From Minisyncoccota bacterium (lineage in GTDB: Bacteria > Patescibacteriota > Minisyncoccia > Phycocordibacterales > Phycocordibacteraceae), in assembly GCA_036405415.1 (NCBI GenBank), contig DASWXP010000002.1, forward strand, positions 272,351 through 336,350: a DNA stretch of 64,000 nt. The letters are read 5' to 3'. The position numbers and the translations under genes were made by a program. The stretch's first letter is position 1, and each line of letters begins with the position of its first letter. A model generated the notes under the pieces. It made no database searches, was not told the origin of the DNA, and saw nothing but the letters and a program-made list of their open reading frames with translations. Positions 12,986 through 53,799 of this stretch are shown here, in pieces.

Positions 12986-13624
12986 TTAGGCAGATAGTAC
13001 CCTTTTGGATGCTTCTTTTCCAATCAGCTGGATTGCACTTTGGATTACTAATCTCTCACGGATACCGGACCGAACACGAATCCTGCACATACCATACTGA
13101 AGCTTTCCTTTCTTTTTCCCTTTAATTATTTCAACTCTATTAATCCTGCTAGCTGGGACATTAAGGGTGCGCGACCAGAATTGGCACGCATGTGGTTCCG
13201 AGATATCTGCATGTAGACGCAGTGACAACGAGATTCTTTCTCGAGGGATTCCCATGTCATCTAGACAGCCCAAGAATGCCACCAGCAGGTTCGGATCAGA
13301 GTTAATTACAGAGAAATCCTTCTTAGTACCTTCGCCCCAATAGAGACCAATTAGCAGGAAGAGAGTGTCACGTGTATTAATCTCGCCGATGAGACCTTTT
13401 GCCCTTTCTAGCGAGTTCTCTCTTAATCCCAAAGCGCGCTCTTTTCCGCCGCCTTGCTTCTCCCGCAGTAACCTCCGCGCTTCCTGGGAAATCGGAACAT
13501 GCTTCACGTAGCGTTGTATGGTGGTCTTTGCCATTCCTGTCTCTCGAGAGATTTCAGGAATACTCATGCCTTGGAGCCTGCGCGCAACTATCATCAGTCT
13601 CGCCTCCTCAGACATCCTTTTCAT
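12986..13624 (-). CDS. Low-GC HTH-domain protein with degenerate LAGLIDADG-like motifs (possible freestanding homing endonuclease or mobile gene)
   Basis: About 47% GC against about 62% background. N-terminal HTH (ARRLQGMSIPEISRETGMAKTTIQRYV), then LIGLYWGEGTK and FLGCLDDMG motifs. The stop codon abuts the 5' end of tRNA-Arg. Confidence 0.5.
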   Translation of the reverse strand: MKRMSEEARLMIVARRLQGMSIPEISRETGMAKTTIQRYVKHVPISQEARRLLREKQGGGKERALGLRENSLERAKGLIGEINTRDTLFLLIGLYWGEGTKKDFSVINSDPNLLVAFLGCLDDMGIPRERISLSLRLHADISEPHACQFWSRTLNVPASRINRVEIIKGKKKGKLQYGMCRIRVRSGIRERLVIQSAIQLIGKEASKRVLSA

Positions 13625-20529: not shown

Positions 20530-20844
20530 GGACCCTGGCCTGACGACCGCTGCCCTAGGCAGAGGAAAGTCCGAACACAGGCTCACCTTGTGTGAGCAGT
20601 CTGGTAGCAGGTAACGCCTGTCCGCCGTAAGGCGCGAGGTGCGAACAGAAACGACGGATGCCGAAAGGCTACGTACTCTCCTTTGGAGAGTGTCCTAAGG
20701 GCGACCTTAGGCTGAAACGGCTAAATCCTTACCGCTGTGCAAGGCCGTGCCCATCATTGTGTGGGAGCGCCGCTCGAGGTGCGTGGCGACACGCATCCCA
20801 GATAGATGGTCGTCCGCGACAGAATTCGGCTTATGACCAGGATC
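20530..20844 (+). ncRNA. rnpB: RNase P RNA, bacterial type A (rnpB), compact form
   Basis: Conserved AGGAAAGTCCG (P4 5' strand), GGTAACGCC, AGGGCG and the 3' ACAGAATTCGGCTTAT (P4 3' strand). P1 pairs GGACCCTGGCC with GACCAGGATCC. A terminator follows at 20853. Confidence 0.7.
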
Positions 20845-20852
20845 CGCTTACA

Positions 20853-35093: not shown

Positions 35094-36293
35094 TTAGAGG
35101 CTTTCCGTATCAAGCGCATCGGTGCGCGAGAACGCGAAGCGGTACGCGATAGCGACGATGGCGCCCGTAGCCGCAAGGAACAGGACGAAGAGTATGAGCT
35201 TGCCAATAACCGGCACCATACCTACGAGGCTGAGCACGAGCATGCCGAGGATCGCGAGCTTCCAGGTAACCTGCTCCTGCTTCAGGAGCCCCCTGCTGAG
35301 CGCTGCGCCCGCGATCACGCCCGCGTACAGGTATCCGAGCATAAGGAGGAGCAGATACGCGACAAGAATCAGGAACGCAACCGCCATGCCCACGAACGAG
35401 ACCAGGAGCAGGATGATGAACACGGGTGCAGCGAATACGACCGCAAACCCGAGGAGCGCCAAGAGCGCGAACTTGCCCGGAGAGCGCGCGAGCGTGCGAT
35501 CCGCCACCCGCTGCGAGAACTCAGGGAAGAGGCCCGCAAGGAGCGCTGTACCGATAAGGAGCGATATGATGCGCACGACGAGGAACACTCCTGCGCCTGC
35601 GATCGCGAATGTCTGCGCTTCTTCCACGCTTGGAAGGTATGAAGACGCGCCCGTATAGAAAACGCCTCCGGTAACGGTCGCGGTCGCGGGGATACCCGCT
35701 TCCTGCGGCGCGTCGTACCGGAGCTCACCTGCGATAACCGTACCTTCCGCTAGCGTGAGCCGGTCGGTCGCGAGCACCTCGACGTCACCCTGAAAGATTC
35801 CGGAGAGCTGGATGTCCGAGCCGTAGACAACGGTCTTCGCGCCGCCACCGTTCATGCGCACGGTGCCGCCGAGGATGCGCGTCTCCAGAGCTGAGGAAGA
35901 CGCTATTACGGTTCCTCCTGCAAGGACGAGGTCTCCGGTTACCGGACCGGTTACGGATACCTGCGCGCCGAGCGCACGAACATCGCCCTGAACCGGGCGC
36001 TCGATTGTTACGGTGCCGCCCGCGACAAGCACGTCCCCTTCGACAGGACCCGCGACAGTAAGCGTGCCGGCAGCGCCCACGATATCCGCCGAAAGCGGAG
36101 CTACGACCGCCACATCGGTCCCTGCCACATAGGCATTGCCTTCAGGAACCTCTGAAATGACGAGGGAGCGGGCGTTCCAGAACGTGGCTGCGGATACGTC
36201 CGCCGGGAAAAGCGCGCTTACGAGGAGGATGACCGCGAGGAATCTGAAGCAGGCCATGATGCCGCCATCATACCACGGGGCCCCAGGCGTCAA
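35094..36293 (-). CDS. Membrane protein with N-terminal beta-helix (bactofilin-like G-x-V repeats) and C-terminal multi-TM region
   Basis: Signal peptide, then repeats such as VAGPVEGDVLVAGGTVTIERPVQGDV, then about 6 TM segments. Confidence 0.5.
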   Translation of the reverse strand: MTPGAPWYDGGIMACFRFLAVILLVSALFPADVSAATFWNARSLVISEVPEGNAYVAGTDVAVVAPLSADIVGAAGTLTVAGPVEGDVLVAGGTVTIERPVQGDVRALGAQVSVTGPVTGDLVLAGGTVIASSSALETRILGGTVRMNGGGAKTVVYGSDIQLSGIFQGDVEVLATDRLTLAEGTVIAGELRYDAPQEAGIPATATVTGGVFYTGASSYLPSVEEAQTFAIAGAGVFLVVRIISLLIGTALLAGLFPEFSQRVADRTLARSPGKFALLALLGFAVVFAAPVFIILLLVSFVGMAVAFLILVAYLLLLMLGYLYAGVIAGAALSRGLLKQEQVTWKLAILGMLVLSLVGMVPVIGKLILFVLFLAATGAIVAIAYRFAFSRTDALDTESL

Positions 36294-36813: not shown

Positions 36814-37200
36814 ATGGAAAAGACCGAACAGGAATGGAAAGAGACGCTGAGCCCCGAGGAATACCGGGTGCTCCGGGAATCAGGCACCGAGGCGCCGTTC
36901 GCAGGAAAATACGTGGACAATCATGAGGATGGCACATACCGCTGCAAAGCGTGCGGCACTGTGCTGTTCTCTTCAGAAACCAAGTTCGATTCAGGGAGCG
37001 GCTGGCCGTCGTTCACAGACCCCGCCGTAGCGGAGAACGTCGGGACCCGTGAGGACGAGAGCCTTGGCATGCGCCGCACGGAAGTCTTCTGCAGGAACTG
37101 TGGGAGCCATCTGGGCCACGTGTTTGACGACGGCCCTAAGAAAGCGGGCGGAAAACGGTATTGCATCAATTCCATCGCGCTCGATTTCGAGAAGCAGTAG
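36814..37200 (+). CDS. msrB: Peptide-methionine (R)-S-oxide reductase MsrB
   Basis: SelR domain with two CxxC zinc pairs (CKACG, CRNCG) and catalytic RTEVFC/GHVF motifs. Confidence 0.9.
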   Translation: MEKTEQEWKETLSPEEYRVLRESGTEAPFAGKYVDNHEDGTYRCKACGTVLFSSETKFDSGSGWPSFTDPAVAENVGTREDESLGMRRTEVFCRNCGSHLGHVFDDGPKKAGGKRYCINSIALDFEKQ

Positions 37201-37428
37201 CTTCATGAATGCTCCATGCGGTATCTGCGAAGATGCACGAGTAGCAAGTAACCCTGACATTTCGTATGGCTGATGCAGATGAGCTTGAGCGTGACGCGGA
37301 TCGCGAAGAGGAACGGGCCGGCGCGCACACCGAGAGCGCGGAACTCCTTCGCAGGCAGGCTGAGGAGCAGCGCGAGGACGAGAGGCGCGAAGAGGAAGCG
37401 CACGAAGATTAAATATAAAAAGATGTGA

Positions 37429-37455
37429 GCCCGACCGGAATCCGGTCGGGCTCAT
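37429..37455. terminator. Hairpin GAGCCCGACCGG-AAT-CCGGTCGGGCTC
   Basis: Perfect 12 bp stem between convergent msrB and the gcrA-like gene. Confidence 0.55.
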
Positions 37456-37462
37456 CTTGGTC

Positions 37463-37981
37463 TCAGACGTATCGCATCGCCGAGTGCTCGAGACTCTTCG
37501 CAGCGGAGCGGACCAGCGGCTGGAATGCCACTCTCCCATGCTCGATGCAGTAGGGTCCGTGGTCCGATTTCCGTCCGCAGAACGAGAAATCGCTGCTTGC
37601 CGGATCGCCGATAGGCCACCTGCACATATGCTTGCTCAACGTGCCGAGCACAGCGGTGCCAGACAGGTCCGGAAGCACGGGCTCATCCTCGACTCTCGGC
37701 GCAGGATCAGAAGAGGTCGCAGGCGGTCGAGTGGCCGCTTTCTGAGCAGGCCGATTCTGTGTGCTTTTTTTCACGCGCGACCTTCCATCACTGAAGGTTG
37801 TGCGAGCCGGCTGTGACGGAGTAGCGCGCCCGGAAAGCCCGAGGCGATGCACTTTTCCGATAACGGCGTTACGCGTTATGCCTGCGCCGAGCTGCCTGGA
37901 GATCTCAGTCGCAGACTGGCCCTCAAGCCAGAGCTTCTTCAAAGTCGAGACACGATCCTGGGTCCAGCCATCGTTTACCAT
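37463..37981 (-). CDS. GcrA-family cell-cycle regulator-like protein
   Basis: N-terminus W..DRVSTLKKLWLEGQSATEISRQLGAGITRNAVIGKVHRLGLSGRA and C-terminus CRWPIGDP...FCG...PYC.EH closely match alphaproteobacterial GcrA. Confidence 0.8.
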   Translation of the reverse strand: MVNDGWTQDRVSTLKKLWLEGQSATEISRQLGAGITRNAVIGKVHRLGLSGRATPSQPARTTFSDGRSRVKKSTQNRPAQKAATRPPATSSDPAPRVEDEPVLPDLSGTAVLGTLSKHMCRWPIGDPASSDFSFCGRKSDHGPYCIEHGRVAFQPLVRSAAKSLEHSAMRYV

Positions 37982-38057
37982 ATCAATGTCCTCCTTCGGG
38001 CGTGGTGCCCATCCTAATGGCTAGTATAGATGCAACCTCAACCTTAAGGCCAGGGTT

Positions 38058-38387
38058 CTAGAGAGTAGAGGGAAAGGACCTTGAAAGATGATATTGGCAG
38101 GGTGCCCGGCACCCTTCCCCGTTCGTGCGTATTATCCGTTCACGCATTCGCCTATGGCATTTACGAAAGCCATCGGACTCGGGGTCGCCATACTCGTCCT
38201 CAAGCTCCTCCTCCCTGGAGTTCTCACCGAAATAGAACGTACGGCCGTAGCATTCCTCAAGGGAGCTACCACTTCCGCAGAAGTCGCGACGCAGCTTGCC
38301 GCAAGCGCAGGCAGCATACAGATCTCGAACGAACCGTTTGAGCTCCCGCGCGCTCCTGAAGCGAAGTACCCGTACTAATTGATGCAA
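38058..38387 (-). CDS. Hypothetical small Cys-containing acidic protein (109 aa)
   Basis: Minus-strand frame shows host-like GC3 codon bias and an acidic tract (EEELEDEYGDPESDG). Preferred over the overlapping plus-strand ORF. Confidence 0.4.
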   Translation of the reverse strand: MHQLVRVLRFRSARELKRFVRDLYAACACGKLRRDFCGSGSSLEECYGRTFYFGENSREEELEDEYGDPESDGFRKCHRRMRERIIRTNGEGCRAPCQYHLSRSFPSTL

Positions 38388-43943: not shown

Positions 43944-44294
43944 TTATATAGGTGATGCGTCAATTACGTATTGCTCGGGCGTCCATGCGGGCGTGCATGC
44001 TATCACGAGCGTAAGTTCGCCCTCCCAGAACACCGCCTCTCCCTTCTCTATCGTAACCACGTCTCCTTGCGAAAGCTTGCTTTCGATACCGTTTACCGAA
44101 ACGACGCCGCTGCCCTCAGTTACGTACACGAGCTCCCGAACCGCTTTATTTATCGCATTCCCCTCAACCGGATATCGTCCTCGTATCTCAATCCGTGCGA
44201 CGTTGATATCGCTTCCTCCGGTCTCGTACTCGAACGCCGTGCAGGTGCCCGCGTTCTCAAACCTTCCTGCTTCGTTCTTCCGGATTATCTTCAT
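43944..44294 (-). CDS. Cupin domain protein
   Basis: 116 aa with a small beta-barrel pattern. Overlaps the def stop by 4 nt, suggesting an operon. Confidence 0.65.
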   Translation of the reverse strand: MKIIRKNEAGRFENAGTCTAFEYETGGSDINVARIEIRGRYPVEGNAINKAVRELVYVTEGSGVVSVNGIESKLSQGDVVTIEKGEAVFWEGELTLVIACTPAWTPEQYVIDASPI

Positions 44295-44827
44295 GCCTTT
44301 TCCTTTAGAAGCTTTCTGAGCTCCTTCTGCGTTACCAAGGTCTTAATGTCCGTCATGCGGTCGACATACACAACACCGTCTAGGTGATCAAGCTCGTGCT
44401 GGAAGATGCGTGCCCAGAACCCCGAGAGCTTCTCGCGTATCTTCTCGCCGTTCTCATTCACGTATTCAACCTGGATCCATTTGGCGCGAGGCACGCGGCC
44501 GAACGGCCCCCTGAAGCTGAGACATCCTTCCCAGTCCGTAACGCTCAAAGGTGAGCGTTCAAGGATTCTGGGATTGATGATGGTGAGCGGACCCATACGC
44601 TCCGTTTCAGGTCTTCTCTTTATAGGCCGCATCTCCATAACTGCTACCCGCAGAGGCCTCCCTACCTGCGGTGCGGCGATACCCACGCCGCCCGTACGAC
44701 GCATGGTGTAGATCATCTGCTTGATGAGACTCTGGAACTCTGCCGAGCGAATCGTTCCAAGCGGCACATTCTTGGTCCTGGTCCTCAGGATAGGGTTCCC
44801 GAACTCGGTACGCGGGAGCACTTTCAT
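44291..44827 (-). CDS. def: Peptide deformylase
   Basis: GVGIAAPQVG, GCLSFRG and HELDHLDG motifs. The ATG is 6 nt after TGGTATACT. Confidence 0.9.
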   Translation of the reverse strand: MKVLPRTEFGNPILRTRTKNVPLGTIRSAEFQSLIKQMIYTMRRTGGVGIAAPQVGRPLRVAVMEMRPIKRRPETERMGPLTIINPRILERSPLSVTDWEGCLSFRGPFGRVPRAKWIQVEYVNENGEKIREKLSGFWARIFQHELDHLDGVVYVDRMTDIKTLVTQKELRKLLKEKA

Positions 44828-44913
44828 GCGGAAAGTATACCAGCGTTAAATTAATAATTGACTCGATGTATCTAAGGCATTAGGCTTTAGCCGGATCAAA
44901 AAGGAGTAATGCG

Positions 44914-45507
44914 ATGTCAGAGGAATATGCCTATAAGGGCGATCCTCTGGGATCGCCAAAAAGATACTGCCGTGTTTGTGGAAAGACTCTTTCTGCATAC
45001 AACAGGAACAAGCAATGCTTTCATCATGCCGTCGACGAGACGGTTCGTCAGGAGCGGAAAATCACAACATCAGTAGCTATCCTTCCGGTTGTGCGCACTG
45101 CCGTTCGTTCAGGGCCGCCGAAGGTGAAACGTATCGTTCCAAAACCTGCAGTTCAGCAGGCGGCGCGACAAACGGCAGTGACGAGCGCGAGTGCACTTGA
45201 GCTTCCGAAGCGGAGATTCCCGTCTCAGAAAGCGATCGCCAGCGTTGTGTGTACCTGGTTTGGCGTTGAATTCGAAGATGTGGTTCGCGAGGATAAGCAC
45301 GCACGAATCTCGCACATACGAAACATCCTCATGTATCTCCTGTATAAGGACTCAGCGGGTTCGTATCAATCTGTCGTGGAATTCCTGAATCGGAAAAACC
45401 ACACAACCGCAGTAGCTGCGGTTAAAAAGATCGAGACCCTGTGTTCTTATGACAGACGGCTCCGCTGCGAACTGTGGCTTATGCGGAGGAAATACAGAAT
45501 CAAATAG
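44914..45507 (+). CDS. Standalone DnaA domain-IV (Bac_DnaA_C) HTH protein with N-terminal zinc ribbon
   Basis: C-terminus (ARISHIRNILMYLLYKD...SYQSVVEFLNRKNHTTAVAAVKKIE) matches the DnaA DNA-binding domain. N-terminal CRVCGK...CFHH. About 50% GC, with an SD AAGGAG. Confidence 0.65.
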   Translation: MSEEYAYKGDPLGSPKRYCRVCGKTLSAYNRNKQCFHHAVDETVRQERKITTSVAILPVVRTAVRSGPPKVKRIVPKPAVQQAARQTAVTSASALELPKRRFPSQKAIASVVCTWFGVEFEDVVREDKHARISHIRNILMYLLYKDSAGSYQSVVEFLNRKNHTTAVAAVKKIETLCSYDRRLRCELWLMRRKYRIK

Positions 45508-46581: not shown

Positions 46582-48240
46582 CTATCCCACGTAGAGCGCT
46601 CGCGCGAGCTTCAGCTCGTCGAATGAGTACTTCCCCTTTAGGAACGCATGCACCGGCGTGAGCTTGCTTGCGCCGAGCGCATCGAACGCTTCGTGTATCT
46701 TCGGGAGCGCGCCGCGCAGCCTTCCGGGAAGCTGCTCTTCTAGACTCTCCGTATCAAGACGGCCCGCTTCGATGAGCTTGCCCACATGATCCGCGATGGT
46801 GCCGAGCGTAAGCGCGCGGGCTTTCGCGATATCCATCAGCGAGCGACCCTCCTCGAGGAGCGCGAGCGTCTCGTCATAGGTCGTACGCTTCTCGGGACGC
46901 TCTCCAGGAGCGGCGGCCTCGAGCGTTCCGCCCATTGCGGTTATGAAGTTGTGCTCGAGCGTTATCCGCTCTCCGGACACTTCGAGCGCTGTAAACGCGC
47001 GACGCGCCGCTTCTGATGCGTCCTTGAGCTCCTTATCAAACGCGGCGACGCGCGGGTGTATCGCAAGCGCGTTCTCGCTCCATCCGAGAAGATGTACGCC
47101 CGAGAGCGTGCGTACGCGCGAGAGCGCGACGTATCCTTGTCCGTATTCGAAGGCACGCGAGAGATCCATTGCTGCGGCATCAAGGCTCTGTCCCTGACTC
47201 TTATGCACCGTGATGGCCCACGCAAGCCGCAGCGGCACCTGGCTTATCTTTGCGCGTACCTTCCCGCCCTCCTCGACCGCCCAGTCCTGAGGCGCGATTG
47301 CGATCTCGCGCCCGTCCCGCGTCTCGATGATCGGATAGCCCGTACCGCGCTCGAATCCGATGACGGTGCCGAGCGTTCCGTTCGCGTAGCCGGCGACGGG
47401 ATTATTCTTCGTCGCCATGACGACCGCTCCTTCCTTGAGCACCAAGGATTCAGGCGAAAGGCAGCCGCGCTTCAGGGACTCGATGAGCACCTTCCCGCCC
47501 GCGCTTTCCATGACGAACGTGTGCGGCGACCCCGGAAGCTTGGCGAGCTCGGTCTGGTTTATCCGGTCCACGTCGGCGTTATGCGTAAACAGCTGCGGGA
47601 CGCCTTCAGCGAGCTCGTCGTACTCTGCTTCGCGCGCCGTTATGAGCGACACGTGCGTGTGGTCCCATTCACCCGCCCTAATCGCGCTCAAGACTGAGAG
47701 GAATGTCGTATCGTCCTGGCGATGCTGCTCCTCGAGATAGCAGACGACCGGGTTGAGTGCCTTCCATGCGGATGCGTCGAACGCGAACGACACTTCGCCG
47801 CGCGACACGGGCGGAAGCTGGAAGAAGTCGCCTACGAGCACCACCTGAAGCCCTCCGAACGCCCGGTCGCTATGCCGTACCGTGCGCAGCACCTCGTCTA
47901 CCATCGATAGCACGTTCCCTGAGAGCATCGATATCTCGTCGATGATAAGCACCTTCGCCTTCTGGAGGCGCTTGGCTACGTGCTCCTTGCTCGCTATCGC
48001 GTCGAGCAACTCTTCAGACATGCGCTCTGCGATGCCGATGCCGCTCCACGCGTGAAGCGTCATGCCGCCCACATGGGTCGCAGCGATACCGGTGGACGCG
48101 GTTATGGAGGGCTCAATGCCGCGCGCACGGAGCCACGCGACATATGTGTTCACGGTATGAGTCTTGCCGCTTCCGGGCTCTCCCGTAAGGAAGACGTTCG
48201 CGCCCGTCTGCAATATGGAAAGCGCGTCGGACTGCGTCAT
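46582..48240 (-). CDS. PIF1/RecD-like AAA ATPase DNA helicase with C-terminal helix-hairpin domain
   Basis: Walker A GEPGSGKTH, Walker B LIIDEISM, QLPPV and a helicase C-like region, 552 aa. Confidence 0.8.
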   Translation of the reverse strand: MTQSDALSILQTGANVFLTGEPGSGKTHTVNTYVAWLRARGIEPSITASTGIAATHVGGMTLHAWSGIGIAERMSEELLDAIASKEHVAKRLQKAKVLIIDEISMLSGNVLSMVDEVLRTVRHSDRAFGGLQVVLVGDFFQLPPVSRGEVSFAFDASAWKALNPVVCYLEEQHRQDDTTFLSVLSAIRAGEWDHTHVSLITAREAEYDELAEGVPQLFTHNADVDRINQTELAKLPGSPHTFVMESAGGKVLIESLKRGCLSPESLVLKEGAVVMATKNNPVAGYANGTLGTVIGFERGTGYPIIETRDGREIAIAPQDWAVEEGGKVRAKISQVPLRLAWAITVHKSQGQSLDAAAMDLSRAFEYGQGYVALSRVRTLSGVHLLGWSENALAIHPRVAAFDKELKDASEAARRAFTALEVSGERITLEHNFITAMGGTLEAAAPGERPEKRTTYDETLALLEEGRSLMDIAKARALTLGTIADHVGKLIEAGRLDTESLEEQLPGRLRGALPKIHEAFDALGASKLTPVHAFLKGKYSFDELKLARALYVG

Positions 48241-49081: not shown

Positions 49082-49150
49082 AGCATTCCTTAAGGCTCGT
49101 TTGACCGCAGATTATTGACATGGCGTAGTTTGTGTTATAATCTTGTACCT

Positions 49151-50698
49151 ATGAATATCGATGCACTTATAAAGCGTCTCCGGGCGCTCGCTTCCCTCGT
49201 TTCCATACGTTCAAAGACGCTCTGGCGCCGGTACCGCGGCCTCAAGCGCTGGCAGCAGATCGTGATCGCTGTGGTGCTCGCGACGCTTTTGATCGGCGGT
49301 ATCGCGCTTGCCCGCAGCGGCGCAAAGCCTGAGACCCTCCCGGACGGGCGCGTCGTGTCGCTCGCTACCGTCGGCGAACTCTCCGGTACCGGAGGCTCGG
49401 TCGACCTCATCGGCTCCGTGCGCTCGATTACCGAAGCGAACATCCTCGCGAAGAACGGCGGCACCGTGACGAACGTGCGCACCCGCATCGGTGCAGGCGT
49501 TCCGGCCGGATTCGTGATCGCAGAGCTCGAGAACGCTGCTGAGCGCGCGGCGGTACTTCAGGCGGAAGGCGCGTATGATGCGGCCGTAGCGGCGCGCAGC
49601 GCACAGTCTCTTCCGGACACGCAGGCATCCGCTCGCGACGAGTACCGCGACGCGTACACGACGCTTGATACGATCGTCGAGAACGACATCGATACCTTCT
49701 TCGGTGGCCCTACGGCCGTAGGTCCTGACCTTCTCATCTACCCGAACGCGAACACCGCGACGCGCCTTTCGCGCGAGCGCGCACGCATCGACTCGCTCAT
49801 GCGCTCGTTCGAGGCGAACCTCGCGACCGCCAACTCACGCAGCCCGCAGGCGCTCCTTGACGAGGCTGAGTCCGTCGCGCGCCAGGTCCAGGCCTTCACC
49901 AACGAGCTCGCAGCCGCAGCCAACGAGCGCGACTCGCGCGCTACCGCAGCTCAGCTGAGCGCGCTCGCATCCGCGCGCACCGGCGTGAACGGCGTGCTCT
50001 CAAGCATCGCGAGCGCGCGTGCAGGCCTTCGAAGCGGCACCGTATCCGCGACCGCAAGCGCCGACGCGAGCGTGAAGCAGGCACTCGGCTCCCTGCGCGC
50101 AGCACAAGCGGCGCTCGAGCGCACCGTAGTGCGCGCACCGATCGGCGGCACCGTGAACTTCCTCCCTATCCGCGTCGGCGACTACGTCACTCCGATGCAG
50201 CACGTAGCGACCGTAGCCCAGAACGGCGCGCTCGAGATCGTCGCGTACGTGTCTGAGGACAACCGCGACCTCCTGGTTGCAGGCGGACAGGTCATGATCG
50301 ACGGCGCCTACGAGGGCATCGTCACGTCCGTTGCTCCTGCGCTCGATCCGACCACCAAGCAGATCGAGGTGCGCATCGCGGTAACAAGCGAGACCGAGCT
50401 CGTAAGCGGCCAGTCCGTGCACATCGCGCTCCCGGATCTCGCACCAACCGAAGCTGCTGCGCCTGAGGGTCCAGTGCTTCTTCCACTTGCGGCCGTGAAG
50501 CTCCGTGCCGGAGACCGCATCGTGTTCTCCGTAGGAGAGGACAGCCGCCTCGTCGCGCATCAGGTCGAGGTCGGCGAAGTGCGCGGCGATCGCATTGAGA
50601 TACGTACGGACCTTCCGAAGGACCTGCGCATCGTCGAGGACGCGCGCGGACTCTCCGAGGGCGAAGCGGTGCGTATCGAGTCTGAGACCGGCATCTAA
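49151..50698 (+). CDS. RND efflux periplasmic adaptor (HlyD/membrane fusion protein family)
   Basis: TM anchor, long coiled-coil and a C-terminal beta-barrel (RTVVRAPIGGTVNFLPIRVGDYV). Promoter TTGACA..TGTTATAAT with the ATG 9 nt downstream. Confidence 0.8.
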   Translation: MNIDALIKRLRALASLVSIRSKTLWRRYRGLKRWQQIVIAVVLATLLIGGIALARSGAKPETLPDGRVVSLATVGELSGTGGSVDLIGSVRSITEANILAKNGGTVTNVRTRIGAGVPAGFVIAELENAAERAAVLQAEGAYDAAVAARSAQSLPDTQASARDEYRDAYTTLDTIVENDIDTFFGGPTAVGPDLLIYPNANTATRLSRERARIDSLMRSFEANLATANSRSPQALLDEAESVARQVQAFTNELAAAANERDSRATAAQLSALASARTGVNGVLSSIASARAGLRSGTVSATASADASVKQALGSLRAAQAALERTVVRAPIGGTVNFLPIRVGDYVTPMQHVATVAQNGALEIVAYVSEDNRDLLVAGGQVMIDGAYEGIVTSVAPALDPTTKQIEVRIAVTSETELVSGQSVHIALPDLAPTEAAAPEGPVLLPLAAVKLRAGDRIVFSVGEDSRLVAHQVEVGEVRGDRIEIRTDLPKDLRIVEDARGLSEGEAVRIESETGI

Positions 50699-50703
50699 TC
50701 CCT

Positions 50704-53700
50704 ATGACGAAGTTCTGGACGTTCTTCCTCGCGAAGCACCATTTCACGATCCTCCTTGCGGTCGTGCTCATATTCGGCGGGTTCTATGCCGTGCTCGCGA
50801 TCCCGAAGGAATCATCGCCTGAAGTGCAGATCCCGATGGGTGTCGTCACGACCGTGCTTCCGGGCGCGTCAGCAGAGGATATCGAGACCCTCATCACGAA
50901 CAAGGTGGAAGACCGCGTCCTCGGCATCGAGGGCGTCTCGAAGGTCACGTCGTCTTCCGGAGACGGCGTCTCCTCGGTCACGGTTGAGTTCAACGCGAAC
51001 GCGGATATCGATAAGTCCATCCAGCTCCTTAAGGACGAAGTGGACACGGTGCGCCCGGAGCTTCCTGAGGAAGCGAATGACCCGGTGGTGTCTGACGTGA
51101 ACTTCGCGGACCAGCCGATCCTCATCATCTCTATCGCGGGCGAGCTCGCTCCTGCTGAGCTTACCGAACTCGGTGAGACCGTAGCGGATGAGATCGAGCG
51201 CGTACGCGGCGTATCCTCCGTCTCGGTGTCGGGCGTCCGTGAGCGCCAGGTACAGGTAATCGTCGAGCAGGCGAAGCTCCGCCAGTACGGTATCTCGATC
51301 AGCGACGTCACGAATGCGCTGCGCGCTTCGGGCGTCGCTGCTCCTGCAGGCGCCATCACCGTGGACGGCGTCCGGTACTCCGTGCGCCTTGAAGCGGGCC
51401 TTACGGACACCGCGCAGGTAGGCGCGATCGCGCTCGCAGGCCCGGGCGGCACCCCGATCCGCATCGCGGATGTCGCTACGGTCGTGGACGGGCTCGCCGA
51501 TCCTGCGACCTATTCGCGCGTATCAGTCGACGGAGCGCCGAGCGCCCCTGCGCTTACCCTTTCCGTATTCAAGAGCCGCGGCGGCAACATCCTTGAGACC
51601 GGCAGCGATGTTAAGAAGCTGCTCGAGGAGCTCGAGTCCGGACCGCTCTCGGGAACCGAGACCGTCATCACCTACGACGCTGCAGACGATATCGCGCACG
51701 ACCTAGCAGAGCTCTCGAAGGTCGGCCTTGAGACCGTGGTGCTCGTCATGATCATGCTCTTCCTCACGCTCGGCTGGAGGGAGTCCTTGGTTGCGGCCGC
51801 TTCGATCCCGCTCTCGTTCCTCATCGCGTTCATCGGCCTTGCCGCAAGCGGCAACACCATCAACTTCATCTCGCTTTTCTCGCTCATCCTCGCGATCGGC
51901 ATCCTCGTGGACTCCGGCATCGTGGTGGTCGAGGCCATGCACACCCGCCTAATGCAGACGGGCGACAAGTACAAGGCGGCCGTGGCTGCGATCAAGGAGT
52001 ACGCGTGGCCGCTCATCGCCGGCACCATGACCACGGTCGCGGTGTTCGTACCGCTCTTCTTCCTCTCGGGCATCGTAGGCAAGTTCATCGCTTCGATCCC
52101 GTTCACGGTCATCTTCGTGCTCATCGCCTCGATCTTCGTAGCGCTCGGCCTCGTGCCGCTCTTGGCGCTCTACGTGATCAAGAAGGAGCCGTCCGCGCTC
52201 GAGAAGCGCCAGGAGGAATATAACGAGCGCGCGAAGGCGTGGTACGAGAAATACCTGCGCTCGATGCTCGGCAATCGCCAGAAGGAGAACAAGTTCCTCT
52301 GGACCATGGCCGGCCTCTTCGTGCTCTCGCTCCTGCTTCCTATCACGGGCCTCGTGAAGGTCGTGTTCTTCCCTGCCGAAGACATGGAATTCGTCACGAT
52401 CGCGATCGAAAAGCCGCAGGGCACCGCCCTTGCGGACACCGATCTGGCGGTCCGCGAGGTGGAAGAGCTTCTATACGAGGATTCCCGCGTCGAGTCCTTC
52501 GTTTCCGATGTCGGCACCGCGAGCTTCTTCAGCAGCACGGGCGGCGCAGGCTCGCATATCGCGAACATAACCGTGAACCTTGCTGAGGACCGGAAGCAGA
52601 CCAGCGGCGAGATCGTGACGGATCTGCGCAAGACGCTTTCGTCCGTGACGTCTGCACGTATCATCGTCTCTGAGCCTGCGGGAGGCCCGCCTACCGGCGC
52701 CGCTATCTCCGTTACCTTCGTCGGCGACGACCTCGCGGCGCTCGGCACGGCAGTCGACCAGGGCGCGCGCGCTCTCTCAGAGGTTCCCGGAACTACCAAC
52801 GTGGACACGTCCATGAAGGATGACGGCGCTGAGTTCGTGGTGCGCCTCGATTCCGCGAAGGCGGCTGAGCTCGGCGTATCTCCGCTCGCGGTCGCAGACA
52901 CGCTCCGCAGCGCCCTCTTCGGCACGGATGCGACCGATATCCGCGCAGGCGGAAATGATATCGAGGTACGCACGAAGCTCGACCTCAACCCTGGCTTCCG
53001 CGATCCGTCCGAGACTACGGACGCGACCATTGACGCGGTCCGCAGCCTCACGGTCCCAGGAGCGCGCGGTCCGGTTCCGCTCTCGTCGGTCGCGACCATC
53101 GCGTACGAACCTGCGAACGCGGTTATCCGCCACGAGGACGGCACGCGCATCGCGACTCTCACCGCAGACGCCGCAGCAGGCGGCAACCCGCTCCAGATCG
53201 CTTCCACCTTCACTGAGAAGATGCAGGATGTGGAGCTTCCTGAAGGGGTCGAAATGAAGATCGGCGGCGAGAGTGAGGACGTCAACCAGTCATTCGCTGA
53301 GATGGGCCTCGCGCTCCTTGCCGGCGCGGCGCTTATGCTCGCGATCCTCGTGCTCGAATTCAACTCGTTCCGCCATTCGCTCTACCTGCTTCTTATCATC
53401 CCGCTTTCCTTGGTGGGCGTGCTCGCCGGGCTCTTCATCACGAACTCAGCGCTTTCCTTCCCCTCGATGCTCGGCATCATCGCGCTCGCGGGTGTGATTA
53501 TCAATCACGCGATCATCCTCATGGACTCGATCGCGCGAATCGGAAACGAGCGCACGGACGCGTCCCTCACAGACGTGGTGGTCGAGGCAGCATCGACGCG
53601 CTTCCGCCCGATCATCCTTACGACCGTAGTCACGGTGGTGGGCATGGTCCCGCTCTCCTACGCGTCAGGCATCTGGGGACCGCTCGCGTTCTCCATCATG

Positions 53701-53799
53701 TTCGGCCTTGCATGGTCCATGATCCTCACGCTCGTCCTCATCCCGATCCTGTACCATCGCTGGCCAGGAAAGGAGGTGCGCGCCAAGTTCACGAAATAG
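50704..53799 (+). CDS. RND superfamily efflux permease (AcrB/MMPL-like, 12 TM, two large periplasmic loops)
   Basis: 1031 aa with AcrB topology and conserved TM4/TM10 regions. Starts 5 nt after the adaptor gene. Confidence 0.9.
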   Translation: MTKFWTFFLAKHHFTILLAVVLIFGGFYAVLAIPKESSPEVQIPMGVVTTVLPGASAEDIETLITNKVEDRVLGIEGVSKVTSSSGDGVSSVTVEFNANADIDKSIQLLKDEVDTVRPELPEEANDPVVSDVNFADQPILIISIAGELAPAELTELGETVADEIERVRGVSSVSVSGVRERQVQVIVEQAKLRQYGISISDVTNALRASGVAAPAGAITVDGVRYSVRLEAGLTDTAQVGAIALAGPGGTPIRIADVATVVDGLADPATYSRVSVDGAPSAPALTLSVFKSRGGNILETGSDVKKLLEELESGPLSGTETVITYDAADDIAHDLAELSKVGLETVVLVMIMLFLTLGWRESLVAAASIPLSFLIAFIGLAASGNTINFISLFSLILAIGILVDSGIVVVEAMHTRLMQTGDKYKAAVAAIKEYAWPLIAGTMTTVAVFVPLFFLSGIVGKFIASIPFTVIFVLIASIFVALGLVPLLALYVIKKEPSALEKRQEEYNERAKAWYEKYLRSMLGNRQKENKFLWTMAGLFVLSLLLPITGLVKVVFFPAEDMEFVTIAIEKPQGTALADTDLAVREVEELLYEDSRVESFVSDVGTASFFSSTGGAGSHIANITVNLAEDRKQTSGEIVTDLRKTLSSVTSARIIVSEPAGGPPTGAAISVTFVGDDLAALGTAVDQGARALSEVPGTTNVDTSMKDDGAEFVVRLDSAKAAELGVSPLAVADTLRSALFGTDATDIRAGGNDIEVRTKLDLNPGFRDPSETTDATIDAVRSLTVPGARGPVPLSSVATIAYEPANAVIRHEDGTRIATLTADAAAGGNPLQIASTFTEKMQDVELPEGVEMKIGGESEDVNQSFAEMGLALLAGAALMLAILVLEFNSFRHSLYLLLIIPLSLVGVLAGLFITNSALSFPSMLGIIALAGVIINHAIILMDSIARIGNERTDASLTDVVVEAASTRFRPIILTTVVTVVGMVPLSYASGIWGPLAFSIMFGLAWSMILTLVLIPILYHRWPGKEVRAKFTK

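Follow-up and report, generated by a model that had tools for sequence, protein, structure and literature searches.

A 64,000-nucleotide stretch of a Minisyncoccota bacterium genome (positions 272,351 to 336,350 of contig DASWXP010000002.1, assembly GCA_036405415.1; hereafter the window) encodes a member of the GcrA family of cell-cycle regulators. GcrA has been described as conserved in Alphaproteobacteria, with homologs in phages, and a literature search found no report of it in Patescibacteria (candidate phyla radiation, CPR). The explanation we favor, with a probability of about 0.6, is that the gene (37463–37981, minus strand) is a resident Paceibacteria gcrA, acquired horizontally from Brevundimonas-like Caulobacterales or from one of their mobile elements, since ameliorated to its host, and acting through the GcrA cofactor mechanism.

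Sequence comparison confirms a genuine, intact GcrA-family gene with the predicted architecture of a DNA-binding domain (DBD), a linker, and a sigma-interacting domain (SID). The coding sequence, found in the open reading frame (ORF) listing, starts with ATG and specifies 172 amino acids plus a stop codon; the product matches the Pfam family GcrA (PF07750) with 159.8 bits and E = 8.5e-47 across profile positions 3–152 of 155 (cutoff 26.9), and GcrA of Caulobacter crescentus (7ye1_G) aligns to it end to end (E = 1e-48). Because the isolated Caulobacter DBD (5yiu_A, E = 2.3e-16) and the isolated SID (5yix_B, E = 1e-20) each match on their own, the similarity is wider than that of a generic helix-turn-helix (HTH). 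The original prediction had described a two-domain GcrA homolog with the N-terminal DNA-binding motif DRVSTLKKLWLEGQSATEISRQLGAGITRNAVIGKVHRLGLSGRA and the C-terminal pattern CRWPIGDP...FCG...PYCIEH; both motifs are present in the ORF, and the Pfam and PDB matches bear the description out over the full length of the protein. It keeps 43 of the 44 columns conserved in at least 80% of 133 diverse family representatives, a conserved-column match of 0.98 (against 0.93 for the average representative). An identical protein is recorded at NCBI, on a 622-kb contig of a metagenome-assembled genome (MAG), as "GcrA family cell cycle regulator" of a Candidatus Paceibacterota bacterium. The window gene is not an ortholog embedded in the alphaproteobacterial DnaA-GcrA-CtrA-CcrM circuit; neither CtrA nor CcrM was seen in the 64-kb window.

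Functional residues were taken from the Caulobacter structures (PMC5887438) and mapped onto the window protein by alignment; the references are PDB 7YE1 and 7YE2 (chain G), 5YIV (DBD with DNA), and 5YIX (SID with sigma70 domain 2). The DBD, the region matched by 5yiu_A, spans residues 1–49 (37835–37981, minus strand), equivalent to Caulobacter GcrA-DBD residues 1–45. Its base and backbone contacts W3, W15, S20, A21, T32, R33, N34, I37, G38, K39, H41, and R42 are identical, and the replacement of S22 by T is the sole changed contact. The methyl groups of N6-methyladenine (m6A) are read in Caulobacter by two pockets, R33/N34/I37 and N34/G38 (PMC5887438), both unchanged here (window R37, N38, I41, and G42); the DNA-reading residues K39, H41, and R42 are likewise identical (window K43, H45, and R46). 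By its architecture and residues, the protein should act like GcrA at the DNA end.

The linker (residues 50–106; 37664–37834, minus strand) is of low complexity, rich in Pro, Ser, Thr, and Ala, and 23–38% identical to Caulobacterales linkers; its Caulobacter equivalent is unstructured and about 60 residues long. The SID (residues 107–157; 37511–37663, minus strand), recognized by the 5yix_B match, has an exact CCCH zinc motif, C120-X14-C135-X9-C145-X2-H148, with four of four zinc ligands kept. The sigma-binding face is identical at the equivalents of W120, G123, D124, P125, F130, F132, Y142, V149, A150, and L113, and K119R, S126A, V110L, and Y151F are conservative changes often seen among family members. 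The position of G129 is occupied by D (D131). Although G129D abolishes sigma binding in Caulobacter (PMC5887438), we rejected it as a disabling change, since the family most often has D at this position (61 of 133) and Brevundimonas has E. At six positions the protein departs from a residue that is invariant, or almost so, in 119 Caulobacterales sequences (S22T, V110L, K119R, S126A, E129D, and Y151F). The C-terminal tail, defined by alignment (residues 158–172 and stop codon; 37463–37510, minus strand), reads LVRSAAKSLEHSAMRYV as compared with QQTKKKSGGAELARSLRRY in Caulobacter and is less basic than the Caulobacter "basic patch."

Host genome and origin of the gene

The host belongs to the Patescibacteria/Paceibacteria (CPR) and is not alphaproteobacterial. 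Among GTDB species representatives, the 80 best matches to BipA, encoded 4 kb from gcrA, all belong to Patescibacteria MAGs, at no more than 91% identity, with labels including Paceibacterota, UBA6241, Adler-, Wolfe-, and Kaiserbacteria. The gene order HlyD-hyp278-Pif1-YceG-BipA-DEAD-DsbA-hyp168-Zincin-...-MsrB-VKOR-bactofilin-AhpC-HhH is common to the related Patescibacteria loci L005, L007, L008, and L009 at 50–90% protein identity, and synteny with Paceibacteria MAGs extends over more than 15 flanking genes. An alphaproteobacterial contig is contradicted by these BipA matches and this synteny, which, together with the NCBI protein record, agree with the earlier view that the genome is of another lineage. 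Two further traits had been read from the context, and both are present: a pairing of ftsZ (77–1381) with trxB (1323–2360), and a bias toward CTC, which makes up 60% of leucine codons. The G+C content (GC) of the window, 60%, compares with 48–52% in the closest BipA relatives (L005, L007, and L008; BipA identity 82–91%), which implies that GC has risen markedly and recently in the lineage of the window.

A chimeric origin, in which the gcrA of a co-occurring alphaproteobacterium would have been joined to CPR DNA by misassembly or misbinning, has in its favor only the general prior that MAGs can be chimeric. Within 100–300 bp on each side, gcrA is flanked by genes 60–86% identical to syntenic Patescibacteria genes, and both of its junctions are reproduced over 2–9 kb, at 100% nucleotide identity, in separate assemblies of four runs (SRR11449177, -179, -183, and -188). 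The literature search brought up nothing on the SRR114491xx runs. The GC, the GC of third codon positions (GC3), and the leucine codon choice of the gene are those of the CPR host; a Brevundimonas gene would be expected to show a much higher GC3 and a preference for CTG. We therefore rejected a chimera and regard an artifact of this kind as barely credible.

The independent Logan contigs break at the same places, L001 and L002 at 40259 and L003 and L004 at 36286; the common breakpoints hint at strain variation or repeats at 36286 and 40259.

None of the 80 related Patescibacteria loci (the best 80 matched through BipA) encodes GcrA, and among 5.8 billion clusters no protein exceeds 59% identity to the window GcrA, so an ortholog is absent from the sampled relatives. 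The synteny map delimits a lineage-specific insert of about 0.9 kb (37201–38087) that contains gcrA, a terminator, and a small acidic ORF of 48 amino acids. At the corresponding slot, L005 has genes for PAP2-like and DedA-like membrane proteins, followed by a homolog of orf96 about 125 bp before msrB; L008 holds an MsrA-like gene, and in L007 the slot is rearranged. By this distribution, gcrA is a lineage-specific acquisition made after the split from the sampled relatives.

The gene has a GC of 0.605 (z = +0.22), a GC3 of 0.669 (z = -0.75), and a codon log-likelihood z of -0.97, all within the host range, and CTC is its commonest leucine codon, as in the host. These values sustain the earlier claim of host-like codon usage without recent insertion, and host-like composition and codon use together suggest an old transfer. 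With a divergence of about 42% from the nearest donor-like sequence, full amelioration indicates that the transfer was old, that evolution after it was fast, or both.

The 119 best matches to the window protein are all 52–59% identical to it, and those with a named source are almost all from Brevundimonas or other Caulobacterales. Brevundimonas GcrAs form the closest class (54–59% overall; for example P0002, P0003, P0010, and P0056), and among representatives of 50%-identity clusters the nearest, P0121 (57%), stands for a Caulobacteraceae cluster. Over 132 well-aligned columns, identity of the protein reaches 67–70% with Brevundimonas-type sequences and 62% with Caulobacter, and does not exceed 60% with any other representative. 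A neighbor-joining tree places it as sister to 12 Brevundimonas-type sequences, outside the Brevundimonas clade. The two share Brevundimonas-specific characters: a one-residue insertion in LGxG(V/I)TRN (LGAG(I)TRN in the window, LGGG(V)TRN in Brevundimonas) and the motifs LWLEGQSA, GRATPSQPARTTF, and DLxGTA. The donor was apparently a bacterium of the Caulobacterales resembling Brevundimonas, or a mobile element that such a bacterium carried.

A phage donor was considered and rejected, because no match in INPHARED (31–38% identical) or IMG/VR (at most 43% over the full length and, in one match, 53% over part of it) is closer than the cellular Brevundimonas proteins. Two metagenomic proteins of the group near the window protein, P0142 and P0137, lie in phage-like or mobile-element contexts; they were for this reason rejected as evidence of a second CPR carrier, and because of them a mobile intermediate in the transfer to the CPR lineage is possible. 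The earlier remark that GcrA homologs outside Alphaproteobacteria are mainly phage-borne fits the INPHARED, IMG/VR, and L165 matches.

In L165 (8001–9118), the gene for the GcrA-like P0142 stands directly before that for an MT-A70-family m6A methyltransferase, after which come DnaB and an HTH_36 protein, an arrangement that looks like a phage-like replication module with a possible methyl reader–writer pair. A further relative, the 617-residue P0122 of a Logan contig, contains four separate GcrA-like stretches (E = 7e-41) and represents tandem GcrA modules in one polypeptide.

Sigma docking, methylation, and competing explanations

In the favored reading, gcrA would have been captured by horizontal transfer after the lineage split from its sampled relatives, long enough ago that its codon use and base composition could ameliorate to those of the host. 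The HTH domain, as mapped, retains every residue known from Caulobacter to read the GANTC-type box and its N6-methyl groups, and in the CCCH zinc domain both the fold-defining ligands and the hydrophobic docking face for domain 2 of the housekeeping sigma factor are conserved. The product would be a monomeric transcription cofactor in the CPR cell, riding on or cooperating with RNA polymerase–sigmaA and biasing initiation at promoters that carry a GcrA box, with a sigma-interacting surface probably re-tuned or loosened for a sigmaA that has no proteobacterial nonconserved region (NCR).

Several results weigh against this reading, and they concern the placement of the protein and its population as well as methylation and sigma docking. 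Bootstrap support for the position as sister to Brevundimonas is about 50%. The equivalog model NF050816 of NCBIfam ("cell cycle sigma 70 cofactor GcrA") gives 211.2 bits, under its 280-bit cutoff, so the protein is a GcrA-family member for which functional equivalence to the alphaproteobacterial cell-cycle GcrA is uncertified. The gene is known from a single population, and dN/dS, the ratio of nonsynonymous to synonymous substitution rates, is uninformative because all independently assembled copies are 100% identical at the nucleotide level.

Methylation gives a further group of such points. Pfam scans of all large ORFs found no DNA methyltransferase in the 64-kb window, nor did a six-frame probe with a CcrM sequence or a scan of the window for the (D/N/S)PP(Y/F/W) motif. 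GANTC occurs 234 times in the window, compared with 394±18 in dinucleotide shuffles, but this depletion was rejected as evidence of CcrM: the ratio of observed to expected occurrences (O/E) is 1.06 under an order-3 Markov model, some of the 15 other palindromes compared are depleted as much or more (CANTG 0.47 and TCNGA 0.56), and relatives that lack gcrA have GANTC O/E values of 0.44–0.92. Depletion of the extended GcrA box YGAKTCG (30 against 86 expected; O/E 0.35) was rejected as a signal as well, the non-target control YGAMTCG (0.38) and the relatives (0.28–0.58) being equally depleted. After these controls, no GANTC-specific compositional signal is present in the window. The suggestion that a CcrM-like partner accompanies the gene consequently finds no support in the 64-kb window, where no methyltransferase is encoded and the GANTC statistics are uninformative once controlled.

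TGANTCA is found only once in the window (two strand-counts) where about 12 would be expected under the dinucleotide model (O/E 0.08; relatives 0.48–1.13), and CANTG is its most depleted palindrome of the form NN-N-NN; restriction-modification systems with genes outside the window may target TGANTCA and CANTG.

A last group of points concerns sigma. Caulobacter GcrA docks on a coiled coil of sigma70 regions 1.2 and 2.1 and the ends of the NCR; its contact residues in sigma70 are almost invariant in Alphaproteobacteria, and the sigma70 substitutions A136E and G133E abolish binding in Caulobacter (PMC5887438). Domain 2 of Escherichia coli sigma fails to bind GcrA, and the GcrA–sigma interaction is lineage-specific. 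The window has no sigmaA gene, and the rpoD products of two related Paceibacteria loci, L051 (403 amino acids) and L065 (402 amino acids), served as proxies (Caulobacter region 1.2 was checked in 7ye1_F at 113–146, and an ungapped anchor was used for 402–495). The NCR is missing in both, region 1.2 running straight into region 2.1 (SEKDLAKRIQAGDMEAKNLLARANLRLV). Among the 18 sigma residues that contact GcrA, L051 is identical at five (L128, S130, K139, R140, and A143), conservative at three (L129I, G133S, and E142Q), and changed at six (A136D, D146M, T147E, E418L, Y461W, and R462S), and it has no counterpart for the other four (K298, T403, K407, and E411). L065 is similar, differing at the contacts S130N, G133Q, A136E, E142L, and R462T. 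Judged from these proxies, sigma tethering in the CPR host is doubtful. Their lack of an NCR and their changed contacts leave three readings: the SID was re-tuned, sigma tethering was lost and only the DBD acts, or the target is not the CPR sigma. We prefer the first, in which the SID would have been re-tuned to an NCR-less sigmaA.

The two domains have not diverged alike. Identity to Brevundimonas in the DBD is 0.80–0.82 for the window protein and 0.82–0.84 for Caulobacter; in the SID it is 0.63–0.65 as against 0.84–0.86, and in the tail 0.26–0.33 as against 0.50–0.58. The SID divergence of the window protein is 2–2.4 times that of Caulobacter, both measured against Brevundimonas, and by these identities the SID of the window protein has evolved much faster than its DBD. 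A DBD conserved as between Caulobacter and Brevundimonas, next to a SID and tail that diverged far more, could point to a regulator that works through DNA binding only, as a repressor, an activator, or a nucleoid-associated protein, with the SID persisting as a folded zinc module that has another partner or none; the proxies' missing NCR, their loss of several key docking residues, and the lineage specificity of the interaction fit that view. Yet all four zinc ligands and most of the mapped sigma contacts are identical, the others being conservative, and a streamlined genome would be likely to have eroded or truncated a functionless domain in the time that amelioration takes. We consider a regulator of this kind unlikely.

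The mismatch between a GcrA face with its hydrophobic contacts kept and an altered CPR sigma also bears on the possibility that the target lies outside the cell. Phage-encoded GcrA-like proteins are presumed to act on host sigma70 and host cell-cycle transcription, and a Paceibacteria bacterium living on a Brevundimonas- or Caulobacter-like host might similarly use a captured gcrA against the sigma70 and the methylation-gated cell-cycle transcription of that host; in a weaker form, the gene would merely be a footprint of physical association, pointing to Caulobacterales as the hosts of this CPR clade. The Brevundimonas-like donor signal, the retention of all hydrophobic sigma70-contact residues on the GcrA side, the largely different or missing docking surface of related CPR sigmaA proteins, and the repeated carriage of GcrA-like genes by phages and mobile elements would all suit such a mimic. 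However, no signal peptide or secretion-associated neighbor is visible, the N-terminus being the DBD itself, and no mechanism is known by which a cytoplasmic protein of a CPR cell would reach the inside of a host. The SID has moreover diverged at sites invariant or nearly so in Caulobacterales (K119R, S126A, V110L, and Y151F), besides its overall 2–2.4-fold excess, the reverse of what one would predict for a protein still directed at an alphaproteobacterial sigma70 with near-invariant contacts. A host-directed role is accordingly improbable in our estimation.

The gene might finally be a neutral passenger, a functionless remnant of the transfer whose degradation is yet to come. Its confinement to one population without orthologs in relatives, the lack of a partner methyltransferase in the window, and the lack of polymorphism among the copies are consistent with this. 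Against it stand an intact full-length frame; a strong Shine-Dalgarno sequence, AAGGAGG (37990–37996, minus strand), read from the sequence 8 nt upstream of the ATG; and a strong GC-rich hairpin terminator, found by a terminator scan (37426–37454; 13 pairs, 10 of them G-C). Further evidence against a remnant is that the 43 of 44 family-conserved columns survived about 42% divergence and complete amelioration. CPR genomes are, besides, streamlined. Given the intact conserved residues, the strong Shine-Dalgarno sequence, and the strong terminator, the gene looks maintained and expressible, and a passenger seems distinctly unlikely. The resident cofactor, with a SID probably re-tuned to the CPR sigmaA, is the reading we retain.

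The locus and other features of the window

On its upstream side, gcrA is divergent from orf96 (38088–38378, plus strand), which encodes a small membrane protein with a syntenic homolog in L005 and belongs to the CPR flank. The intergenic region of 106 bp contains a putative -10-like hexamer, TATACT (38023–38028, minus strand), read from the sequence; a promoter consensus scan gave only a weaker site at 38160–38131, within orf96. On the other side, the hairpin separates gcrA from the convergent small acidic ORF/msrB. The acidic ORF, a candidate gene called in the Logan assembly L001 (37266–37412, plus strand), would specify the extremely acidic product MADADELERDADREEERAGAHTESAELLRRQAEEQREDERREEEAHED; it is convergent with gcrA, and the same hairpin would serve both. 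It is followed outward by msrB (36814–37200, plus strand; Pfam SelR, E = 1.2e-52), a gene of the CPR flank that is 60–78% identical to its syntenic counterparts in L005, L008, and L009. No phage, integrase, or replication genes occur around gcrA, the neighbors being chromosomal housekeeping genes.

A second lineage-specific insert may lie at 44291–45507, between yceG and bipA, where def (peptide deformylase) is accompanied by a gene for a 197-residue protein resembling DnaA domain IV. The only domain recognized in this protein is the HTH Bac_DnaA_C, and it matches just the C-terminus of TIGR00362; its gene has a low GC (0.51 as compared with 0.60). Neither gene occurs between yceG and bipA in L005 and L007, the closest relatives. 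A DnaA_C gene near gcrA is curious, since gcrA is under DnaA control in Caulobacter.

Housekeeping genes in the window include ftsZ, trxB, tsaD, a class I aminoacyl-tRNA synthetase gene, lepA, murJ, groEL, bipA, def, and a gene for RNase J, and its RNA genes comprise eight tRNAs and a weak-scoring RNase P RNA (class A, 20530–20849). Its score of 106.6 bits, close to the gathering score of 100, and its span of about 320 nt show that the RNase P RNA is divergent or reduced. An RND-type efflux pair (49115–53799) consists of an HlyD-family adaptor, kept at the syntenic position in L005, L007, and L008, and a 1031-residue pump of the AcrB family (E = 8.7e-189). The product of 46582–48240 is a Pif1-family helicase that carries HTH_40 at its C-terminus and is conserved in relatives (71–77% identity). 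A separate gene, at 12986–13624, encodes a 212-residue protein in which only an N-terminal HTH resembling sigma70 region 4 is recognized.

Comparison with known GcrA systems

Automatic annotation had already assigned the protein to the GcrA family; what is new is a copy that crossed phyla, was ameliorated, and shows domain-asymmetric evolution. The significance is bounded by the material, one gene from one population known here from its sequence alone. Within those bounds, the gene suggests that a module combining a sigma cofactor with an m6A reader can cross phyla and persist in a streamlined genome. It would also offer a natural experiment, in which a sigma-docking domain faces a sigma factor without the docking region, the DBD staying frozen while the SID changes fast. 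A Brevundimonas-like donor gives a hint at the ecological partners of this CPR lineage. Should a gene for a GANTC methyltransferase lie outside the window, the system would be the first case of GcrA-type, methylation-gated transcription control in CPR bacteria.

Caulobacter GcrA, at 173 residues, is nearly the same length as the window protein (172) and has the same layout of DBD, linker, SID, and tail; the base contacts, the m6A pockets, the zinc motif C-X14-C-X9-C-X2-H, and the core of the sigma face are identical. It differs in an overall identity of about 55% (61% in the SID and 22% in the tail), in the absence of the extra residue in the HTH turn (window LGAG), and in a more basic tail. 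Its setting differs too: the window protein belongs to a Patescibacterium whose relatives have an NCR-less sigmaA, and CcrM, CtrA, and other genes of the cell-cycle circuit were not seen in the 64-kb window.

The GcrA-like proteins of phages and mobile elements (phiCbK-like Caulobacter phages, Synechococcus phages, IMG/VR sequences, and L165) belong to the same Pfam family and have the same two-domain layout. They are evidence of horizontal movement of GcrA-like genes and of their presence outside Alphaproteobacteria, but they are much more distant, and the window gene has neither phage neighbors nor an adjacent methyltransferase. Brevundimonas GcrAs, some of which are named "cell cycle sigma 70 cofactor GcrA," differ from the window protein in that it falls outside their clade, has changes at six invariant or nearly invariant positions, and is encoded with CPR codon usage; they resemble it in the one-residue insertion and in several motifs.

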